A DNA stretch of 63,563 nt, the filler included, from Reclinomonas americana ATCC 50394 (Eukaryota), in NCBI GenBank assembly GCA_048213135.1. It is 9 parts of 4 records of this genome, joined end to end, with 100 filler letters (N's around TTAATTAATTAA, not from the genome) between each part and the next. Parts side by side here need not be neighbours in the genome. Positions count along the whole stretch, not along the records: positions 1 to 12,746 come from PS015263.1; positions 12,847 to 23,891 come from PS015263.1; positions 23,992 to 27,987 come from PS015263.1; positions 28,088 to 29,913 come from PS015263.1; positions 30,014 to 34,729 come from PS015263.1; positions 34,830 to 51,027 come from PS015264.1; positions 51,128 to 53,619 come from PS015265.1; positions 53,720 to 55,238 come from PS015265.1; 1 more part is not named here. The stretch is one strand, 5' to 3'. This document shows, one piece after another, positions 3,109 to 62,847 of the stretch. Made by a program: the position numbers and the translations under genes. The number at the start of each line of letters is the position of its first letter. Position 1 is the first letter of the stretch. The notes beneath the pieces are model-generated. The model was not told the origin of the DNA, made no database searches, and saw only the letters and a list, made by a program, of their open reading frames with translations.

Positions 3109-5425
3109 TTACTGACTGTTGATGTCCTCCGAGAACATATCCTGCACCTCCATCGCCGTGTAGTTGGCGCTCGGCGAGCCGAACAGGTGATAGGTGGCCT
3201 TCAGACCGACCAGCGTTCTTCAATCGTAATCACAGTGTGAGGCTGTGCATGTACACACGATAACACGAATGGTACTCACGCTCGCAGATCCTGCTGCACC
3301 ACACCGCCAGTGAACTGGCTGCGGAGGAGGGCAATCAGGAAGTCGGCGCTGGCCGAATTCAGAGAGTTGACCGGAGGGTTGGCGAACGAAGTGGTCACCG
3401 TGTAGATCTGCACGCGACCAGCAATCAGCAGGTGCACAGCTCTACAACAACAACAATTCTTTCCCCAACAAACAAGCAACAGCTGTCTTGATGACCAAGT
3501 TCAACTATCCAAATCATCTCTCTCTTTCTCTCTCCCTCCCTCTCTCTCTCGTCTTCACTCTTTCCCTTTCACGCAACTGGGTTGATCTTATCATTGAAGG
3601 TCATGGTGACGGTCCAACGAAGAGAGTTCTTCTCAGCGACCGTCAACTGCGCGACGTTGGCCGACGGATAGTAAATGTCGAACATGATGGCGCTCGTGGT
3701 GGACGCCGCCAAGTTGATGCGGACCGAGGCCGGTGCCGCCAGCTCTGTACACAGGCGAAGAAGCGGAGTGAGTAAGTTGCAACACTCCTCGGAAGCACAG
3801 CGCACTCAACGAGGCAGCTGTCCCATGGGAATGTAAGCAGTGCCGATATCGGTAGGGGGCATCGAATTCGCGCCTGATGCGTTCGTCGTAATTTGCACCT
3901 GCACAAACAGATGCGCAGTGAGAAGCCTGGCACAAAAAAACACACGTGACACTGCCCCCCTCCGCACCATGACAAACGGAATCTTCTGTACGGCCGACGA
4001 CGGCTGGAAGAAGAACTCGGTGTAGTTGACGCCGACGGGTCCGACGCTCGAAGAGTAGTTGATAGTCTTGCACGAGTTGGTGTCGGACGGGAGGCACGGT
4101 CCCGGAGGGAGATACGGGTCCGGAGGAACGAGCGAGAAGGCAATGTTGTACTTGAGATCATTGCCCACTGGCGGCGTCCAGCTGACCTTGATGCGCGAAG
4201 CACCGTTGCTGTTGGCAGAGATGGCTGTGTACGTGCATGGGGGTGTAAGAGTGCGCCAAGTACGTGCATGAGAGATCTCTTGCATGCGTTGTTTGCTGCA
4301 ACGAAACTGATGAAGCGGCACGGATCCGGAGGGAAGAGGAAGCCGGTGGGAGTCGAGAAGCACAGCTTGTACTGGCCCACCGTCGACGATTGCAGCTGCG
4401 CAGCAGGGTGAGCATCCAAGCCACCACTGCATGCAAGTGCAGTTGTATCTGTAAACAAACCCGAATGACAGCCACTCCATTGTCGGCACTGACCATGCTG
4501 GTCGCCACCGTGGTCACCGGCGGCGACGAGCAATCGCCACTCAGCGGGTGCAGCGACGGCACAAAGTCGGGGCAGCTCTGGTTGTAGCAGCTCGTGTTGG
4601 AGCGGTAGAAGACGTTGCCCTTCAGCTGCGCAGTCAGGTAGTAGCCGACAGGGAAGAATGAAATCGGTCCGTTCGGGTTGCCGCCAGTGAACGGCACGTT
4701 GGTGCTCTCGATGGCCACAGCACCGCCGACCGACGCTGGATACAGAGTGAGCCAAGGTACATGTTACACGTCTTGTGTATATGTGTGTGTGGTGGATGTC
4801 TCTCACCGGTGACAATGGTGTACTTGGCAATCGGCACAGCCGGCACCGTCTTGCCAGCGGCGCGGTAGCAGATGGAGAACTGCGTACCGGCAGGCGCAAG
4901 GCTGTCCGTGATGATGGCGATGCGCGCAGTCGTAAAGCCGGCGTAGACGACTTCCAGGTGAGCGCTGATGCCAGGGACGTCAGGTGCCGGCGTGCAGGCC
5001 GCCAGACGAGCGGGGTCCGACTGGTACGAGCCGTCGGCAAACGGGTCGCCGGAGAGCGAGCTGCTGGCGAATGTGGTGCCGACGAACCAGGCGTCAGCAG
5101 TGTTCAGGCCAACGCCAGTGAACCTGTGGTGTGAGCGAAGGATGAGCATTTTCTGTCACGATGTGGGGAAGGTGCGAATTCGAAGACCAACAACGCAACA
5201 GGTAGGAGACGAGGAAGTTGTAGGGCACCGAATCGACGCCCGGCGGAGGCACGGGCAGGGGCGATGCTTGCGCTGATATGTAGAAGGAGGGAGTAGGAGA
5301 GTGCGAGTGAGTGCAAGAGTGTCGGCTAGCCTGCTTGTGTGTTGCGCGCTCGCACCTTGCGCAGCCAGTATCGTGGCCAGCAGCAGTGTGGAGAGCACCA
5401 CATACACAGTGGAGGACGCACGCAT
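3109..5425 (-). CDS. Secreted modular protein, paralog A (10 exons; signal peptide, Cys-containing beta-rich modules, FN3-like segments)
   Basis: Signal-like start MRASSTVYVVLSTLLLATILAAQ. Exons splice in frame to …QDMFSEDINSQ*. SRIKVSWTPP…LKYNIAF resembles FN3. Exon-by-exon match to the copy at 6989-9265. Confidence 0.85.
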
Positions 5426-6988
5426 GGCGTTGTTGTTGTTGTTGTTGTTGTTTTTTTGAGGTTGCCTGTTCTCCCGAGGCAAGTGCGAAAACTGTGATAT
5501 GATATTCGCCTCTCACTCGGTGATGATCGTCATCAAGTTCGGTGTCCGGAAATGGGTTCGCGACCTTCATGATGACCAACCGCTGCGAGGGAGAGGAAGA
5601 CAGAAATGCAAACCAGTACAGAGACGCCAGTGGTGTGTTGCATGCCGCGCATACGAAGGCGCGCTCAAACGGAAGGAAGAGATCTGAAGCTGGAAACGTA
5701 TACTACTATAGCTAGATGCGAAACGAGCAAACATGTGATGGAACGAACAGGCAATGTCGCAGCGCGCTAGCGGGTCACATAACAATGCAATGCAGTAAAG
5801 TGATCAAATGTATGTGGTGGCAAATCGATGCGCTTCGATATCCTGGTTGAACAAGTGAAGAGTTTTTATTGGCGGACTCTGGATTCCAAATTCGGCATAC
5901 AAGAAAATCTGCATGCAAAGTGTCGACGTGTCTGCATCGTCCAGTGAGACATGGTGGAGGGGATTGATGAGGGTTCAGAGACAATCTTTTACCAATAAAC
6001 GAGCAACAGCAGTTGCTTTGATGACAGAAAACCATATGTCTAAAACTTCTTCGATATCTCACCTCTGTTTCTCTTTCTTTCTTTCTTTCTTCTCTCTCTC
6101 TCTCCTTCCTCTCTCTCTCTCTCTCTCTCTGCAATTCTTCATGTTGCTTGTGCAGCGCTTCCCAATGCGAGTCCATGGCCTCTTGCAGTGCAACGTGTCT
6201 GCACACGTTTTATCACTCTCTCGTTGGGGTGACTCGACTGTCATGAAGTACCCAAGGGCCTGGCCAGCGCATGCGTGCTTGCAATCACTTCCTCATCCTC
6301 TTCTTCTTCTCCTTCTGCATCCGCACATCATTCTTATCATCTTCGTCTCTCTCTCTCTCTCACTCACTCTCTCTCTNNNNNNNNNNNNNNNNNNNNNNNN
6401 NNNNNNNNNNNNNNNNNNNNNNNNNNNNNNNNNNNNNNNNNNNNNNNNNNNNNNNNNNNNNNNNNNNNNNNNNNNNNNNNNNNNNNNNNNNNNNNNNNNN
6501 NNNNNNNNNNNNNNNNNNNNNNNNNNNNNNNNNNNNNNNNNNNNNNNNNNNNNNNNNNNNNNNNNNNNNNNNNNNNNNNNNNNNNNNNNNNNNNNNNNNN
6601 NNNNNNNNNNNNNNNNNNNNNNNNNNNNNNNNNNNNNNNNNNNNNNNNNNNNNNNNNNNNNNNNNNNNNNNNNNNNNNNNNNNNNNNNNNNNNNNNNNNN
6701 NNNNNNNNNNNNNNNNNNNNCTCCTCCTCCTCCTCCACCGTCGCCTCATTCTTCTTCTCCTTCGAAGAACCCTAGCAGTCGCGCGATCTCAGTCTTGACT
6801 GCTTTCAGCAACACAGCAGCGCTCTGCTGTTCCACCACAGCAGTGATGAGTCGACCATCGCCACACAGAAGCACACTGGAGAGTCCACGTTCACTGACTT
6901 AACGCACGAGAAGAATGCGTGTGATCGCTGCGCCAACAAGCTCCGTGTGCTTGGGAGGGTAGGAAGAAAAAACAGGAGAAGAGGAAGG

Positions 6989-61048: not shown

Positions 61049-62847
61049 TCACTCTTTTGCGCGGGCCATCTTGTACGGTCGTTCCCCCTCTTCGGTTTCT
61101 ATGACGGCAGCTGTGGTGCCGTGTGTGTCGTGTCTTCGGCGCTTTTGTCGCAAATTGTGTCGTTCGGCGGCATGGCGCTCAGTCCAGAACTGCATACGAG
61201 GGGAAAGTGAGAGGCTGTAGGTGTGCAGAAGAATACGAGGCAGCACGAAACATTGCCAATTAGAGCACGACATGAGTCGAGGTTCGTGCTGTTGACTTCC
61301 CACGTCGACGCCTCGTACGCCAAGTCCTTCCACTTGACCAGATAATACTCCTCGCCACCCTGCAACGCGCAACTATTGATTAAAAAAGAGGACGTGCTAT
61401 GTCCTTGCTTGCGCGGAGTGGCGACGCAACACTCGCCACGGCGTGACCGACGATGCATTCCACGCGCAACAGAGAGCCACCGGTCACGTGCGCAGCTGCA
61501 GCGGGGGCGGCGGCTGAATCGTGCCCGGCGGTGGAGTCGCGCAGCAGCAACGGCAGCGCGCGCTCCCAGTTCGGCTGCAAGTGGAAGTCGCCAGACTCGG
61601 CGGCGAACAGCAGGCACTTGTCGCCGTGCTCGGCAATCATCGAGTCGAACGCGTTGGCCAGCGCAGCGCTTGGCGAGGCCGCCAGCTGACAATCGCGGTG
61701 AACAAAAAACAAAATTATGGAAGGAGAAAACAACGTGGCGACACACCTGCAGCTCTGGCATCGTGCCCGACCGCAGCAGTTCCATGGCGACCGTGTCAAT
61801 GTCAATCGGCCGCCCCGCGCATGCGCCACGTACCGACGCGCGGAGTCCTGCGCCCGCCACCGTGTCGTGCGGTGGAATGTAGAACTGCGCGCAGTCGTGA
61901 GCCTCGAGGGAAAAAAGGAGTGCGCACGCGGATCACCAACCTCGGCAAGCCCCAGCTTGGCGATGCGGTCGGCCGCCAGTCGCGACTTGCTGGAGGAGCC
62001 GTTCGCGCCAGAAGGCAGCTTGAGTTCTGTCAGCCGCAACAGTGAGACGCTCGCCACCAAACACAGACAGCGCGAAAAGACGGGAAGAACGCACGGCTCC
62101 TCGGCGCTGCGGCCAGACGATCACGCCAGCCCGATACCAATCCGTACCGACCTGACGCCGTGCGCGTGATGATCGACTCATTCGGCGCCGCATGCTGCAA
62201 ATACTCGGTGAGCGCGCCTCCAATAAATTCGGCCGCCGCCGCCAGTGAATGTGGTCTGGGACGGCAGCGATCCTCAAAGAGGATGCCGCGACAAATCTCC
62301 TGCACCCCACAGCAACGATTAGGGCAAGGTAAAAAAGACGAGACAGAAACAATTGCCACGCAACGGTGAGGTCGGTGGCCTTGCCGTCGCACAGCACCAA
62401 CTGGAAGACGCACTCGCCCAGCGGCGTGCCACGAAGCGGGATACCCGACGCCTGCACGCGCCGGTCAAAAACAGACAGCCCATTTTTTGCGCAAACAAAA
62501 AGTGCTCTCACCTGCGCAGCAGCAAGAGCGGCAGTGGCAGCCGATCGCGTTGCCGACACGCTCAAGCGCATCGACTTGATAACATCGTCGTCATCCTCGT
62601 CGTATTCTGTCTTTCGTCCGCGCGTCATGGAGCCGAAACGTCGCTGATTTGCGTAGCGGCGACGGCGGCGACCGCGATCTGGCACGTAGCACTCATCGTC
62701 GTCGTCGTCCTCCTCCTCGGCCTCCTCGTAGTCGTCGTCGTGTGCACCGGAGAGCGCCCGCGCGTGCATTTCGTCGTCGGGGACGAGTGCCGCTAGTGCC
62801 TCGGCGTCGTCGTTTTCCTCGTCCTCGGCATTCTCCTCCTGCACGTA
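61049..62847 (-). CDS. Chromodomain-containing protein (C-terminal chromodomain); 5' exons lie beyond the window
   Basis: RVECIVGH…EEYYLVKWKDLAYEASTWE…LIGN|FWTER chromodomain pattern; acidic N-terminal exon; exons join in frame. Confidence 0.8.

Follow-up and report, generated by a model that had tools for sequence, protein, structure and literature searches.

How is a donor recognised when its exon does not end in G? The question is raised by a 63,563-nucleotide stretch of Reclinomonas americana DNA (the window), which is eukaryotic nuclear DNA with 56% G+C without N and 32 N gaps. About one third of its introns begin GTT-GCGT, not GT-GCGT, and they do so after exons with non-G ends. The introns are short, with medians of 68-70 nt. 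We predicted introns from the window sequence and made three independent counts. A blind gene finder, which had no donor model, relied on GT...AG ends, reading frame, a coding score and an acceptor profile. A second run added a donor profile derived from intron letters only. The third set holds 88 hand-corrected donors, curated with the hypothesis in mind; part of it was compared with homologues, with paralogues and with profile coordinates. The shifted class in this set is defined as +3T with G at +6 only. About 15 kb (1-3100, 14800-18100, 33200-37800, 45300-47100 and 52700-55500) was left unannotated.

An earlier note on this DNA had claimed that donor class is coupled to the last exon base and had proposed a contingency test of the two. 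Run on the window introns, this test confirmed the coupling in all three counts. The blind finder called 89 introns. The base at -1 was A12 T6 C5 G0 in 23 GTT-type donors, G20 T6 C5 A1 in 32 GTR-type donors and C12 T10 G6 A6 in 34 others, which are mostly noise. G at -1 thus differed strongly between GTT and GTR donors (0/23 vs 20/32; Fisher p 4.8e-7), and GTT donors remained distinct when compared with GTR and other donors together (p 1.1e-4). With the donor profile (80 introns), G preceded 1/27 shifted, 26/44 GTR and 4/9 other donors (p 1.0e-6). In the 88-donor set, the 29 shifted donors had A15 T7 C5 G2 at -1, so that G was found in 2/29 shifted donors vs 47/59 of all others (p 3.1e-11). 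The note had counted 31 of 33 shifted donors after non-G; the direction holds, and our curated count is 27/29. It also gave about 60 standard donors after G, of which we could place 47.

We asked whether intron mis-calls, hand-curation bias, paralogues counted twice or chance could produce this pattern. The gene finder is crude, 34/89 of its donors are unclassifiable, and the introns were called from sequence alone. In addition, 18 finder donors were removed by hand, and all 18 had non-G at -1. However, the blind run showed the effect before any editing, and the two unedited finder counts are a safe lower bound for the coupling. Excluding paralogue B from the 88-donor set leaves 2/25 shifted vs 43/54 other donors with G at -1 (p 1.2e-9). 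GTTGCGT occurs 24 times in the window vs 7.4 +/- 2.8 expected (3.3x), and 0/100 shuffles reach 24. GGTTGCGT occurs twice vs 1.7 expected, and therefore the entire excess sits in the form without a preceding G. Homologue-checked junctions also hold, and we consider an artefact very improbable.

The predicted shifted junctions are real as judged by comparison with paralogues, homologues and domain profiles. Exon letters are written here before the slash. Eight shifted donors, all on the minus strand and also called by the finder, sit exactly where the ~95% identity of two paralogues turns to divergence. These are ca/GTTGCGTG (3570-3579), tc/GTTGAGTG (3803-3812), ca/GTTTCGTT (4300-4309) and ct/GTTGCGTT (5192-5201) in paralogue A, and ca/GTTGCGTG (7385-7394), ac/GTTGAGTG (7606-7615), ca/GTTGCGTG (8132-8141) and ct/GTTGCGTT (9057-9066) in paralogue B. 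There is no indel relative to homologues at junction 14342 of a UDP-glucose dehydrogenase (ac/GTTGCGTG, 14335-14344, minus; tblastn to P0002 and P0016) or at junction 19424 of a cytidine deaminase (gt/GTTGCGTT, 19422-19431, plus), where the exons join at residues 73/74 of 1jtk_A and 82/83 of 2d30_A. Profile positions are continuous across junctions 28614, 29571 and 39140. The first two belong to the FH2 domain of a formin on the plus strand (ca/GTTTCGTG, 28612-28621, with a 612-nt intron; ca/GTTGAGTG, 29569-29578, FH2 position 275/275), which carries a further shifted donor called by finder and reading (ca/GTTGCGTC, 27014-27023). The third lies in TRM13, also on the plus strand (ta/GTTGCGGG, 39138-39147, profile about 150/151). 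TRM13 has two more shifted donors after non-G, ca/GTTGCGCA (37965-37974; finder, with a zinc-finger motif spanning the junction by reading and Pfam) and cc/GTTGTGTG (38252-38261; finder and reading).

The other shifted donors after non-G are on the minus strand. A mitochondrial carrier contains ga/GTTGCGTG (31034-31043), aa/GTTGCGCA (31277-31286) and ca/GTTTCGTC (31791-31800), read in frame by eye. The finder placed ca/GTTGCGTG (21929-21938, with frame support) in the gene at 20679-23891, at/GTTGCGTG (47904-47913) and ga/GTTGCGGC (50145-50154) in the gene at 47138-50657, and gt/GTTGCGTC (61423-61432) and cc/GTTGCGTG (62357-62366) in a chromodomain gene. In the latter, the exon up to at/GTTTCGTG (61244-61253) matches CHD5 residues 198-222. 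The finder with donor profile added ta/GTTGCGTC (44211-44220) in the gene at 43.4-45.3 kb and ct/GTTGCGCG (48627-48636) in the gene at 47138-50657.

Two shifted donors follow G, exactly those named in the earlier note. One is tg/GTTCCGTG in TRM13 (39465-39474, plus; first intron base 39467), which opens a 57-nt in-frame intron and was read by eye after being missed by the finder. The other is tg/GTTGCGTC (50391-50400, minus; first intron base 50398), which opens a 63-nt in-frame intron called by the finder with donor profile.

Donors with +3T that keep G at +5 serve as a control. Such donors follow G in 5/6 cases, compared with 2/29 when G is at +6 only (p 3.7e-4), and the extra T by itself is therefore not the cause of G loss at -1. 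The controls after G are gg/GTTTGTTT (4453-4462, minus; a 1-nt paralogue indel lies inside the intron), gg/GTTTGTCC in paralogue B (8286-8295, minus; paralogue alignment, 66-nt in-frame intron), ag/GTTCGTGT in the formin (27553-27562, plus; reading), ag/GTTTGCTT in a CDK7-like gene (55691-55700, plus; reading and kinase profile) and ag/GTTGGTGA in the chromodomain gene (61933-61942, minus; finder with donor profile).

The earlier note's statement that recognition needs a G was too strong, as 12/59 non-shifted donors lack G at -1 (8 in the ordinary register and 4 odd). It had counted about 5 of 65, and all the sites it named were recovered: gc/GTGAGTAC (3272-3281; first intron base 3279) and tc/GTGAGTAC (7156-7165; 7163), both by paralogue alignment, ca/GTGCGTTG (23807-23816; 23814) and ac/GTGCGTCT (48934-48943; 48941), both by the finder with donor profile, and ct/GTGCGTTC (31422-31431; 31429), read in frame, all on the minus strand. 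The total was too low, with 8-12 found here. To these we add GTGCGT at 62094 (cc/GTGCGTTC, 62087-62096, minus; finder) and, by finder and reading on the plus strand, GTGTG at 26029 (ct/GTGTGTAG, 26027-26036, 47-nt intron) and at 26744 (ct/GTGTGATA, 26742-26751). A 41-nt alternative to the intron at 26029 likewise follows T. The odd donors are GTCACG at 31966 in the carrier (gc/GTCACGTC, 31959-31968, minus; in-frame reading), GTTACA at 41199 (ca/GTTACACG, 41197-41206, plus; finder), GTTACA at 56913 in the CDK7-like gene (aa/GTTACAAT, 56911-56920, plus; exons continuous on CDK7 1ua2_A at 104, 105 and 106) and the ambiguous GTTTGGT at 50284, with G at both +5 and +6 (ca/GTTTGGTT, 50277-50286, minus; finder).

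Among donors after G, a weak one lies in the CDK7-like gene (ag/GTTTTCTC, 58411-58420, plus; exons continuous on CDK7, 238/239). A further 41 are spread over 3960-62513 on both strands, with per-gene support as for the other donors, and 38 of them are GTR with +5 G. The first intron bases of these 38 are 3967, 4806, 5355, 7757, 8683, 9201, 11401, 12882, 20913, 21379, 21563, 23514, 30914, 31181, 31525, 31659, 43587, 43765, 44068, 44375, 44834, 45173, 50547, 61746 and 62511 on the minus strand, and 18261, 25738, 26225, 26456, 27189, 27384, 28281, 38397, 39608, 41955, 51801, 52545 and 57251 on the plus strand. The remaining three are at 11236 (minus), 27668 (plus) and 29379 (plus).

We compared the two classes position by position. 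Shifted introns (n=26) have G at +4 (20/26), C at +5 (22/26), T at +7 (21/26) and G at +8 (14/26), and ordinary introns (n=51) have G at +3 (42/51), C at +4 (23/51), T at +6 (28/51) and G at +7 (20/51). In shifted donors the whole ordinary core stands one base further on and varies less, and their consensus, CA/GTTGCGTG, is strict over about 10 bases. The last exon base moves with the core: A is found at 14/26 shifted -1 positions and at 24/51 ordinary -2 positions, but at 2/51 ordinary -1 positions, where G stands in 42/51. The shifted -1 is A-rich, resembling ordinary -2 and unlike ordinary -1. Exonic GTT is preceded by G in 15% and by A in 22% of cases; relative to this background, G is not avoided at shifted -1 (15% vs 2/25), while the G preference is absent and A is preferred. 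Branch and acceptor signals are the same in both classes, with a CTCAY motif 11-31 nt upstream of a CAG acceptor in most introns and median intron lengths of 70 and 68 nt.

These data bear on the register in which the donor is read. If G+1 and U+2 paired as usual and one extra U at +2/+3 were looped out, GCGU would take the places of +3 to +6. Human GUU donors, which likewise start GUU and carry the usual core one base late, have been assigned this register: of 201,541 5' splice sites, 68 were predicted to use it and 54 after revision (Table 3, as given in the accessible text of PMC4856993). Exon -1 would then face an unchanged U1 base, and G should therefore be as favoured there as in ordinary donors. 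The human bulged register pairs G-1, but G precedes only 2/29 shifted donors here, and only 39467 and 50398 fit. Over three positions, a same-register model scored a log-likelihood of -143.8, 32 units worse than the shifted-register model (-111.4), which ties with exonic background (-112.6). For position -1 alone the values are -33.1 (shifted), -66.5 (same-register) and -40.6 (background); for position -2 of the exon, the shifted model (-37.4) does not improve on background (-34.0). We regard a bulged U as improbable.

We favour, at a probability of roughly 55%, a model in which U1 pairing is displaced by one base. The introns would be ordinary major-spliceosome GT-AG introns whose 5' splice site U1 snRNA reads one nucleotide out of register. 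In CA/GUUGCGUG, the U1 base usually paired with exon G-1 would instead face intron G+1, and exon A-1 and C-2 would stand in for the usual A-2 and C-3. U+2 would be the sole mismatch, and UGCGU(G) would pair as the usual +2 to +6(+7). Cleavage would stay directly before GU, and therefore the exon would not need to end in G. The model takes U1 as the reader, a U6 that can accommodate the extra base and a host U1 with stronger pairing to C than to A at usual +4; we infer all three. The earlier note had also proposed that intron G+1 substitutes for exon G-1; the displaced motif, the likeness of -1 to ordinary -2 and the +5 G control agree with this part. It had let cleavage move, whereas most likely it is the snRNA pairing that moves, with the cut remaining at GT.

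Duplex modelling with three assumed U1 5' ends placed +1G on U1 position 8 in 41-42/42 ordinary donors after G. For shifted donors, +1G fell on position 9 in 10-14/26 and on position 8, as a bulge would have it, in only 2-4/26, the rest being unpaired (8-11/26) or elsewhere. With the canonical U1 5' end, shifted duplexes averaged -2.0 kcal/mol vs -7.5 for ordinary donors. These duplexes are very weak, and the displaced-pairing model therefore requires a putative U1 change or extra factors.

The unpaired +1G and weak energies would also be expected if the coupling were set after U1, or by proteins that read both -1 and the bases +3 to +7, U1 pairing being of minor importance. Candidates are U6, U5 loop 1 and U1C/LUC7-type proteins, and U6 can determine where the cut falls independently of the U1 binding site (accessible text of PMC4856993). 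However, a comparison made here with the pairing scheme quoted in the available portion of bioRxiv 10.1101/2022.06.08.495308 gives poor pairing between the U6 ACAGA box and positions 2-6 of GUUGCGU, and the preference for A at -1 has its counterpart at -2, the position facing U1. We give this explanation little chance.

To our knowledge, reading of a donor one base out by a splicing RNA has so far been described only for rare human sites. Roca and Krainer reportedly found human 5' splice sites with a shifted U1 register in 2009. The mechanism itself is not new, as this register is already described in human cells (PMC4856993, its reference 10, as far as the accessible text goes). As at those sites, the flanks here would fit the U1 5' end best with all pairs moved one position, and G+1 would take the usual place of G-1 with the cut kept at GU. 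The human sites, studied with the test oligonucleotide ACA/GUCAAGUAUA, are rare and atypical in that text. Here, judged by sequence, the class makes up 29/88 donors, and it differs in its strict consensus, a pairable U at +3 and a C before the anchoring G. A register that is rare in human would thus cover about one third of introns, with a consensus of its own.

Could a second dedicated U1, or one with an altered 5' end (e.g. A for C facing U+2), be responsible? Such an RNA would be fully complementary to CAGUUGCGU and would remove the mismatch in the same register relative to the cut; the genome would have two donor codes, each read by its own U1 form. The weak canonical pairing and the roughly 10-base consensus would be expected of a fully paired target, but strictness is equally expected if extra pairs must offset a mismatch. 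A search for snRNA genes in the window found none at any threshold. Co-evolved U1 5' ends are known from Entamoeba (donor GUUUGU(U), U1 ACAAAC) and Mastigamoeba (GUGCGC, ACGUAC), according to the available portion of bioRxiv 10.1101/2022.06.08.495308. Their genomes as a whole are rich in donors with +3 U or +4 C, a likeness that may point to a changed U1 5' end here, and GTTTGT-type donors as in Entamoeba also occur here (4460, 8293). Those species, however, use one near-universal donor type (88-90% GUUUGU) in the usual register, whereas two registers coexist here, distinguished by the last exon base. The same portion of that preprint reports preference for +4 C with a standard U1 in Thecamonas trahens and Mamiellales, where GTGCGT-like donors are common as they are here, and mentions neither a GTT-shifted class nor a -1 coupling in these genomes. 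We consider a second or altered U1 rather unlikely.

Under displaced pairing, as the earlier note anticipated, exon ends would be freed from G. Intron phase gives a weak hint of this, with phase 0 in 9/25 shifted donors vs 33/54 others (p 0.053).

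Introns were called from genomic sequence alone with our own dynamic-programming gene finder. In its blind form, the finder combined GT...AG ends with reading frame, an acceptor profile, a prior on intron length and a self-trained coding score, and its only donor information was the GT itself. It returned 89 introns: 23 with GTT-type donors (shifted, as in GTTGCGT), 32 with GTR-type donors (ordinary, as in GTGCGT) and 34 with neither motif, most of which are finder errors. The last exon base (-1) at the 23 GTT-type donors was A in 12, T in six, C in five and G in none. At the 32 GTR-type donors it was G in 20, T in six, C in five and A in one (Fisher p = 4.8e-7 for GTT against GTR; p = 1.1e-4 for GTT against everything else). 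With a donor profile of two classes, derived from intron letters +3 to +9 alone and thus unable to create a link to -1, the finder returned 80 introns; G stood at -1 in 1 of 27 shifted and 26 of 44 GTR donors (p = 1.0e-6). The counts were steady under other penalties and with added branch-site scores, and the finder mis-called introns until a second donor class was permitted.

The finder misses in-frame introns that lack stops and genes with short exons, and neither weakness was cured by tuning intron penalties, a branch-site term, signal scaling or partial genes. Other approaches were abandoned. Tallying -1 bases wherever a motif occurs, with no gene models, was swamped by GAGT and GT repeats, scoring donors by the downstream 3' signal alone was too insensitive, and a greedy local picker merged adjacent introns.

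We also examined 88 hand-corrected donors, the curated set, with classes assigned by intron letters only. The 29 shifted donors (T at +3 and G at +6 but not +5) followed A (15), T (7), C (5) or G (2), and the 46 GTR donors with G at +5 followed G (38), C (4), T (3) or A (1). The remainder comprised six donors with T at +3 and G at +5 (five after G, one after A), three with T at +3 and neither G (two after A, one after G) and four others (three after G, one after C). G thus stood at -1 in 2 of 29 shifted donors and 47 of 59 others (p = 3.1e-11). The difference held when paralogue B, one of a tandem gene pair, was left out (2/25 versus 43/54; p = 1.2e-9) and in the subset of 42 donors with outside support (1/17 versus 21/25; p = 5.3e-7). 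These results confirm the coupling of donor class to the -1 base claimed in the earlier note, with absolute figures somewhat weaker than it gave; the two shifted donors after G that it named, at 39467 and 50398, are exactly the two in our set. Many finder calls of an ordinary donor after a non-G base fell on checking. The ordinary-register donors after non-G in the curated set are mostly full matches to the motif, including GTGAGTAC twice (a paralogous pair) and GTGCGT four times.

Several donors could be placed by homology. The window contains 7,961 N in 32 gaps and is otherwise 56% G+C. Its open frames encode UDP-glucose dehydrogenase (UGDH), cytidine deaminase, formin FH2, TRM13, GH63/trehalase-like hydrolase, GBP-type GTPase, ankyrin-repeat, CDK7-like kinase and chromodomain sequences, all eukaryotic. 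The genes are split by short introns, in which a branch-like CTCAY usually precedes a CAG acceptor by 11-31 nt. Exons of the CDK7-like gene at 56827-56912, 56971-57250, 58293-58412 and 58474 onward align without gaps to human CDK7 (1ua2_A residues 80-104, 106-198, 199-238 and 239-311, respectively), which fixes donors at 56913 (A/GTTACA), 57251 (G/GTGAGT) and 58413 (G/GTTTTC) and rules out the finder donor at 58404 (C/GTGTGG). The chromodomain exon continues past the finder donor at 61303 and matches CHD5 198-222, which leaves 61251 (T/GTTTCGTG) as the donor. The UGDH junction at 14342 (C/GTTGCGTG) shows no indel relative to homologues P0002 and P0016. In cytidine deaminase, the exons on either side of 19424 (T/GTTGCGTT) abut between residues 73 and 74 of 1jtk_A and between 82 and 83 of 2d30_A; against two further chains, 2-3 residues stay unaligned. 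Profile positions are continuous over 28614 and 29571 in FH2 and over 39140 in TRM13. The mitochondrial-carrier gene (32075-30770, minus strand) was lost by the finder and read by eye, giving nine donors.

Curation started from 84 finder introns, and each of the 18 donors dropped had a non-G base at -1. Homology removed 58404 (c) and 61303 (c), and 11889 (c) was superseded by a homology-defined intron. We dropped 5516 (a) as upstream of the paralogue-implied start, 39612 (c) at the TRM13 C-terminus, and 18273 (t) and 18784 (t) as long introns in GT repeat. Length excluded 14790 (t, shifted type; first exon of 16 nt), 27196 (c; 35 nt), 27573 (c, shifted type; 37 nt), and 25343 (t) and 28091 (t), with 2-3 nt exons at a gap. 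The frame was wrong for poly-proline FH1 at 27679 (t), and in-frame alternatives after G lay 6 and 12 nt upstream of 28471 (t) and 47740 (t). The last were 42599 (t, shifted type; uncertain) and 47370 (a) and 49854 (t), both weak signals. The 22 donors added by hand were 8293, 12882, 18261, 26225, 27189, 27555, 27668, 39467, 39608, 55693, 56913, 58413, 61251 and the nine carrier donors; those at 18261, 26225, 27189, 27555 and 27668 are based on signals, intron length and frame only and were chosen with the hypothesis known. Because hand choices were made in that knowledge, the blind counts are the safe lower bound.

The tandem paralogues A (3109-5425) and B (6989-9265), both on the minus strand, provided an internal comparison. 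They have nine common intron positions, their identity of about 95% ends exactly at the called boundaries, and all nine positions keep their donor class. A 1-nt indel identifies the 65/66-nt G/GTTTGT segment as intronic in both copies. The paralogues encode a signal-peptide-bearing, proline-rich protein with exons about 95% identical and no Pfam family, and a protein database search with one of their exons gave no match. The same type of search with the central UGDH exon gave a closest match 66% identical and returned none of the window's own proteins, and a metagenome scan with a TRM13 exon found no relative.

We compared the shifted class with chance expectation. GTTGCGT occurs 24 times in the window versus 7.4 expected, a count reached in none of 100 shuffles, and GGTTGCGT occurs twice versus 1.7 expected. 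G precedes 25% of exonic GT and 15% of exonic GTT, so 2 of 25 at shifted donors does not represent avoidance of G; rather, the strong preference for G seen at other donors is missing from the class. It favours A at -1 (13/25); by comparison, A precedes 17% of exonic GT (binomial p = 6.6e-5) and 22% of exonic GTT. A GC-AG reading of the shifted donors (GTT/GCGT) was rejected because it adds a residue relative to UGDH homologues and misfits GTTGAGT, and sliding of introns by one base from CAG/GT was rejected because only 7 of 25 downstream exons begin with G. Hand selection may have biased the curated counts, and the coupling is already present in the blind ones; that the class is an artefact is very improbable.

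All 29 shifted donors have GT at the cut, with the CTCAY branch motif and CAG acceptor of the other class, and neither these elements nor intron length differs between classes. The shifted motif is the ordinary motif displaced by one base and more strictly kept. C precedes the anchoring G in 22 of 25 shifted versus 21 of 42 ordinary donors (p = 0.0017), and the full GCGT core is found in 12 of 25 shifted donors, 8 of 35 ordinary donors after G and 4 of 7 ordinary donors after non-G. Donors without exon G at -1 therefore lean on GCGT, which suggests that this organism's U1 may pair better there with C than with A. The consensus for U12-type introns is a /RTATCCTT donor with a TCCTTAAC branch site close to the intron 3' end; neither motif was present in the 29 shifted donors or the 3' parts of their introns. 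Recognition by something other than U1 is improbable.

If the whole U1 pairing moved by one base, with intron G+1 in place of exon G-1, the -1 base of shifted donors should act like the -2 base of ordinary donors. A stands at 14 of 26 shifted -1 positions and 24 of 51 ordinary -2 positions, and a shifted-register model outscored a same-register model by 32 log-likelihood units. Among donors with T at +3, G precedes five of six with G at +5 versus 2 of 29 shifted donors, so the deciding element is the register of the G further downstream and not the extra T. In a duplex model with assumed U1 5' ends, G+1 of ordinary donors fell on U1 position 8 in 41-42 of 42 cases, and G+1 of shifted donors fell on position 9 in 10-14 of 26 and on position 8 in 2-4, the rest being unpaired or elsewhere; with a canonical U1 the duplex energies are weak. 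Taken together, it is most likely that U1 reads shifted donors in a one-base-shifted register, to which we assign a probability of about 55%. A register with the extra U looped out would also accommodate the additional T, but the U1 base opposite -1 would then be unchanged, and a preference for G would be expected to persist. That preference is absent (2/29 versus 47/59 in other donors), and bulging is accordingly unlikely. The earlier note's proposal of re-registered recognition holds in part. A one-base move matches the ordinary consensus clearly on the intron side of shifted donors; on the exon side -1 behaves as an ordinary -2, and position -2 adds nothing beyond background.

A dedicated or altered U1 is a doubtful alternative. 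Two donor codes would coexist, an ordinary one with exon G-1 and a shifted one, CA/GUUGCGUG, read by a dedicated, fully complementary U1 variant; the first recognition step of the major spliceosome would then be naturally divided in two, allowing introns after any exon base. An Rfam search of the window found no family at gathering level and no snRNA even at E <= 1, where sub-threshold matches fell on GT/CT repeats only.

In human genes, only rare, exceptional cases of shifted and bulged U1 registers are known. Both the shifted and the bulge +2/+3 registers have been demonstrated in human cells, and Tan et al. (2016, PMC4856993) give ACA/GUCAAGUAUA as a shifted-register test site; GUU-type bulge sites number 54-68 of 201,541 human 5' splice sites, and validated non-canonical registers together account for about 1.5% (PMC4856993). 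Shifted-register reading, the partly supported interpretation of the earlier note, corresponds to a known mechanism, and what is new here is its scale, about one third of donors, and its own consensus. Some genomes combine one changed donor with a co-evolved U1, and others have C at +4 with a standard U1 (Roy and Bowser, bioRxiv 10.1101/2022.06.08.495308); that preprint, as far as consulted, describes no additional shifted class coupled to the final base of the exon. In the Entamoeba type, one atypical donor is nearly universal, whereas 29 of our 88 donors were shifted and 46 were GTR with G at +5. A literature search of limited coverage for a GUUGCG/GTTGCG donor class returned primers and unrelated text only, and an earlier description may exist.

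A genome with such a register at about one third of its introns would show that non-canonical registers can rise to a principal, selectable way of recognising introns. Such a genome would relax the G requirement at exon ends and offer many natural substrates for studying how U1 binding and cut choice are uncoupled, and gene finders with a single donor profile would mis-call one third of its introns. As to the claim that exon ends are freed from G, hand-compiled counts place 9 of 25 shifted and 33 of 54 other introns in phase 0 (p = 0.053), a weak hint that the shifted class serves positions where the codon cannot supply G.

Other features were recorded in the window. The A/GTTACA donors at 41199 and 56913 (plus strand), the latter fixed by the CDK7 alignment, lack G at both +5 and +6 and could be GTACG-type donors in another shifted form. 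The CDK7-like gene contains a 1,042-nt intron (57251-58292, plus strand), 15 times the usual length and fixed by gap-free alignment of its flanking exons. Introns at 39467-39523, 50336-50398 and 26225-26281 and the 66-nt intron from 8293 (minus strand) are multiples of three without in-frame stops; their retention would add 19-22 residues with the frame intact, and gene finders read through them. Upstream of UGDH, 14880-14960 (minus strand) carries two more GTTGCGTGT copies (14892 and 14956) before the first recognisable exon, and the N-terminal ~35 residues were not found upstream as far as the gap at 15873. The region upstream of the carrier gene (32150-33223, minus strand) carries tandem ~190-nt units, each ending in a 'cagtgatgcag'-like sequence; the first exons of the carrier gene were not found. 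A pattern of 44 N, 12 bases and 44 N recurs in eight places (e.g. 12747-12846, 23892-23991 and 27988-28087); it resembles an artefact of assembly or masking, and its 12-base islands are untrustworthy as sequence. Long GT/CA and CT/GA microsatellites lie at 15200-15800, 18270-18430, 25341-25430 and 54680-54790, and the sub-threshold miRNA-like Rfam matches on them are noise. Finally, a 765-codon open frame extends over the GH63/trehalase-like gene (40815-43109, plus strand), with family matches to parts of it only.
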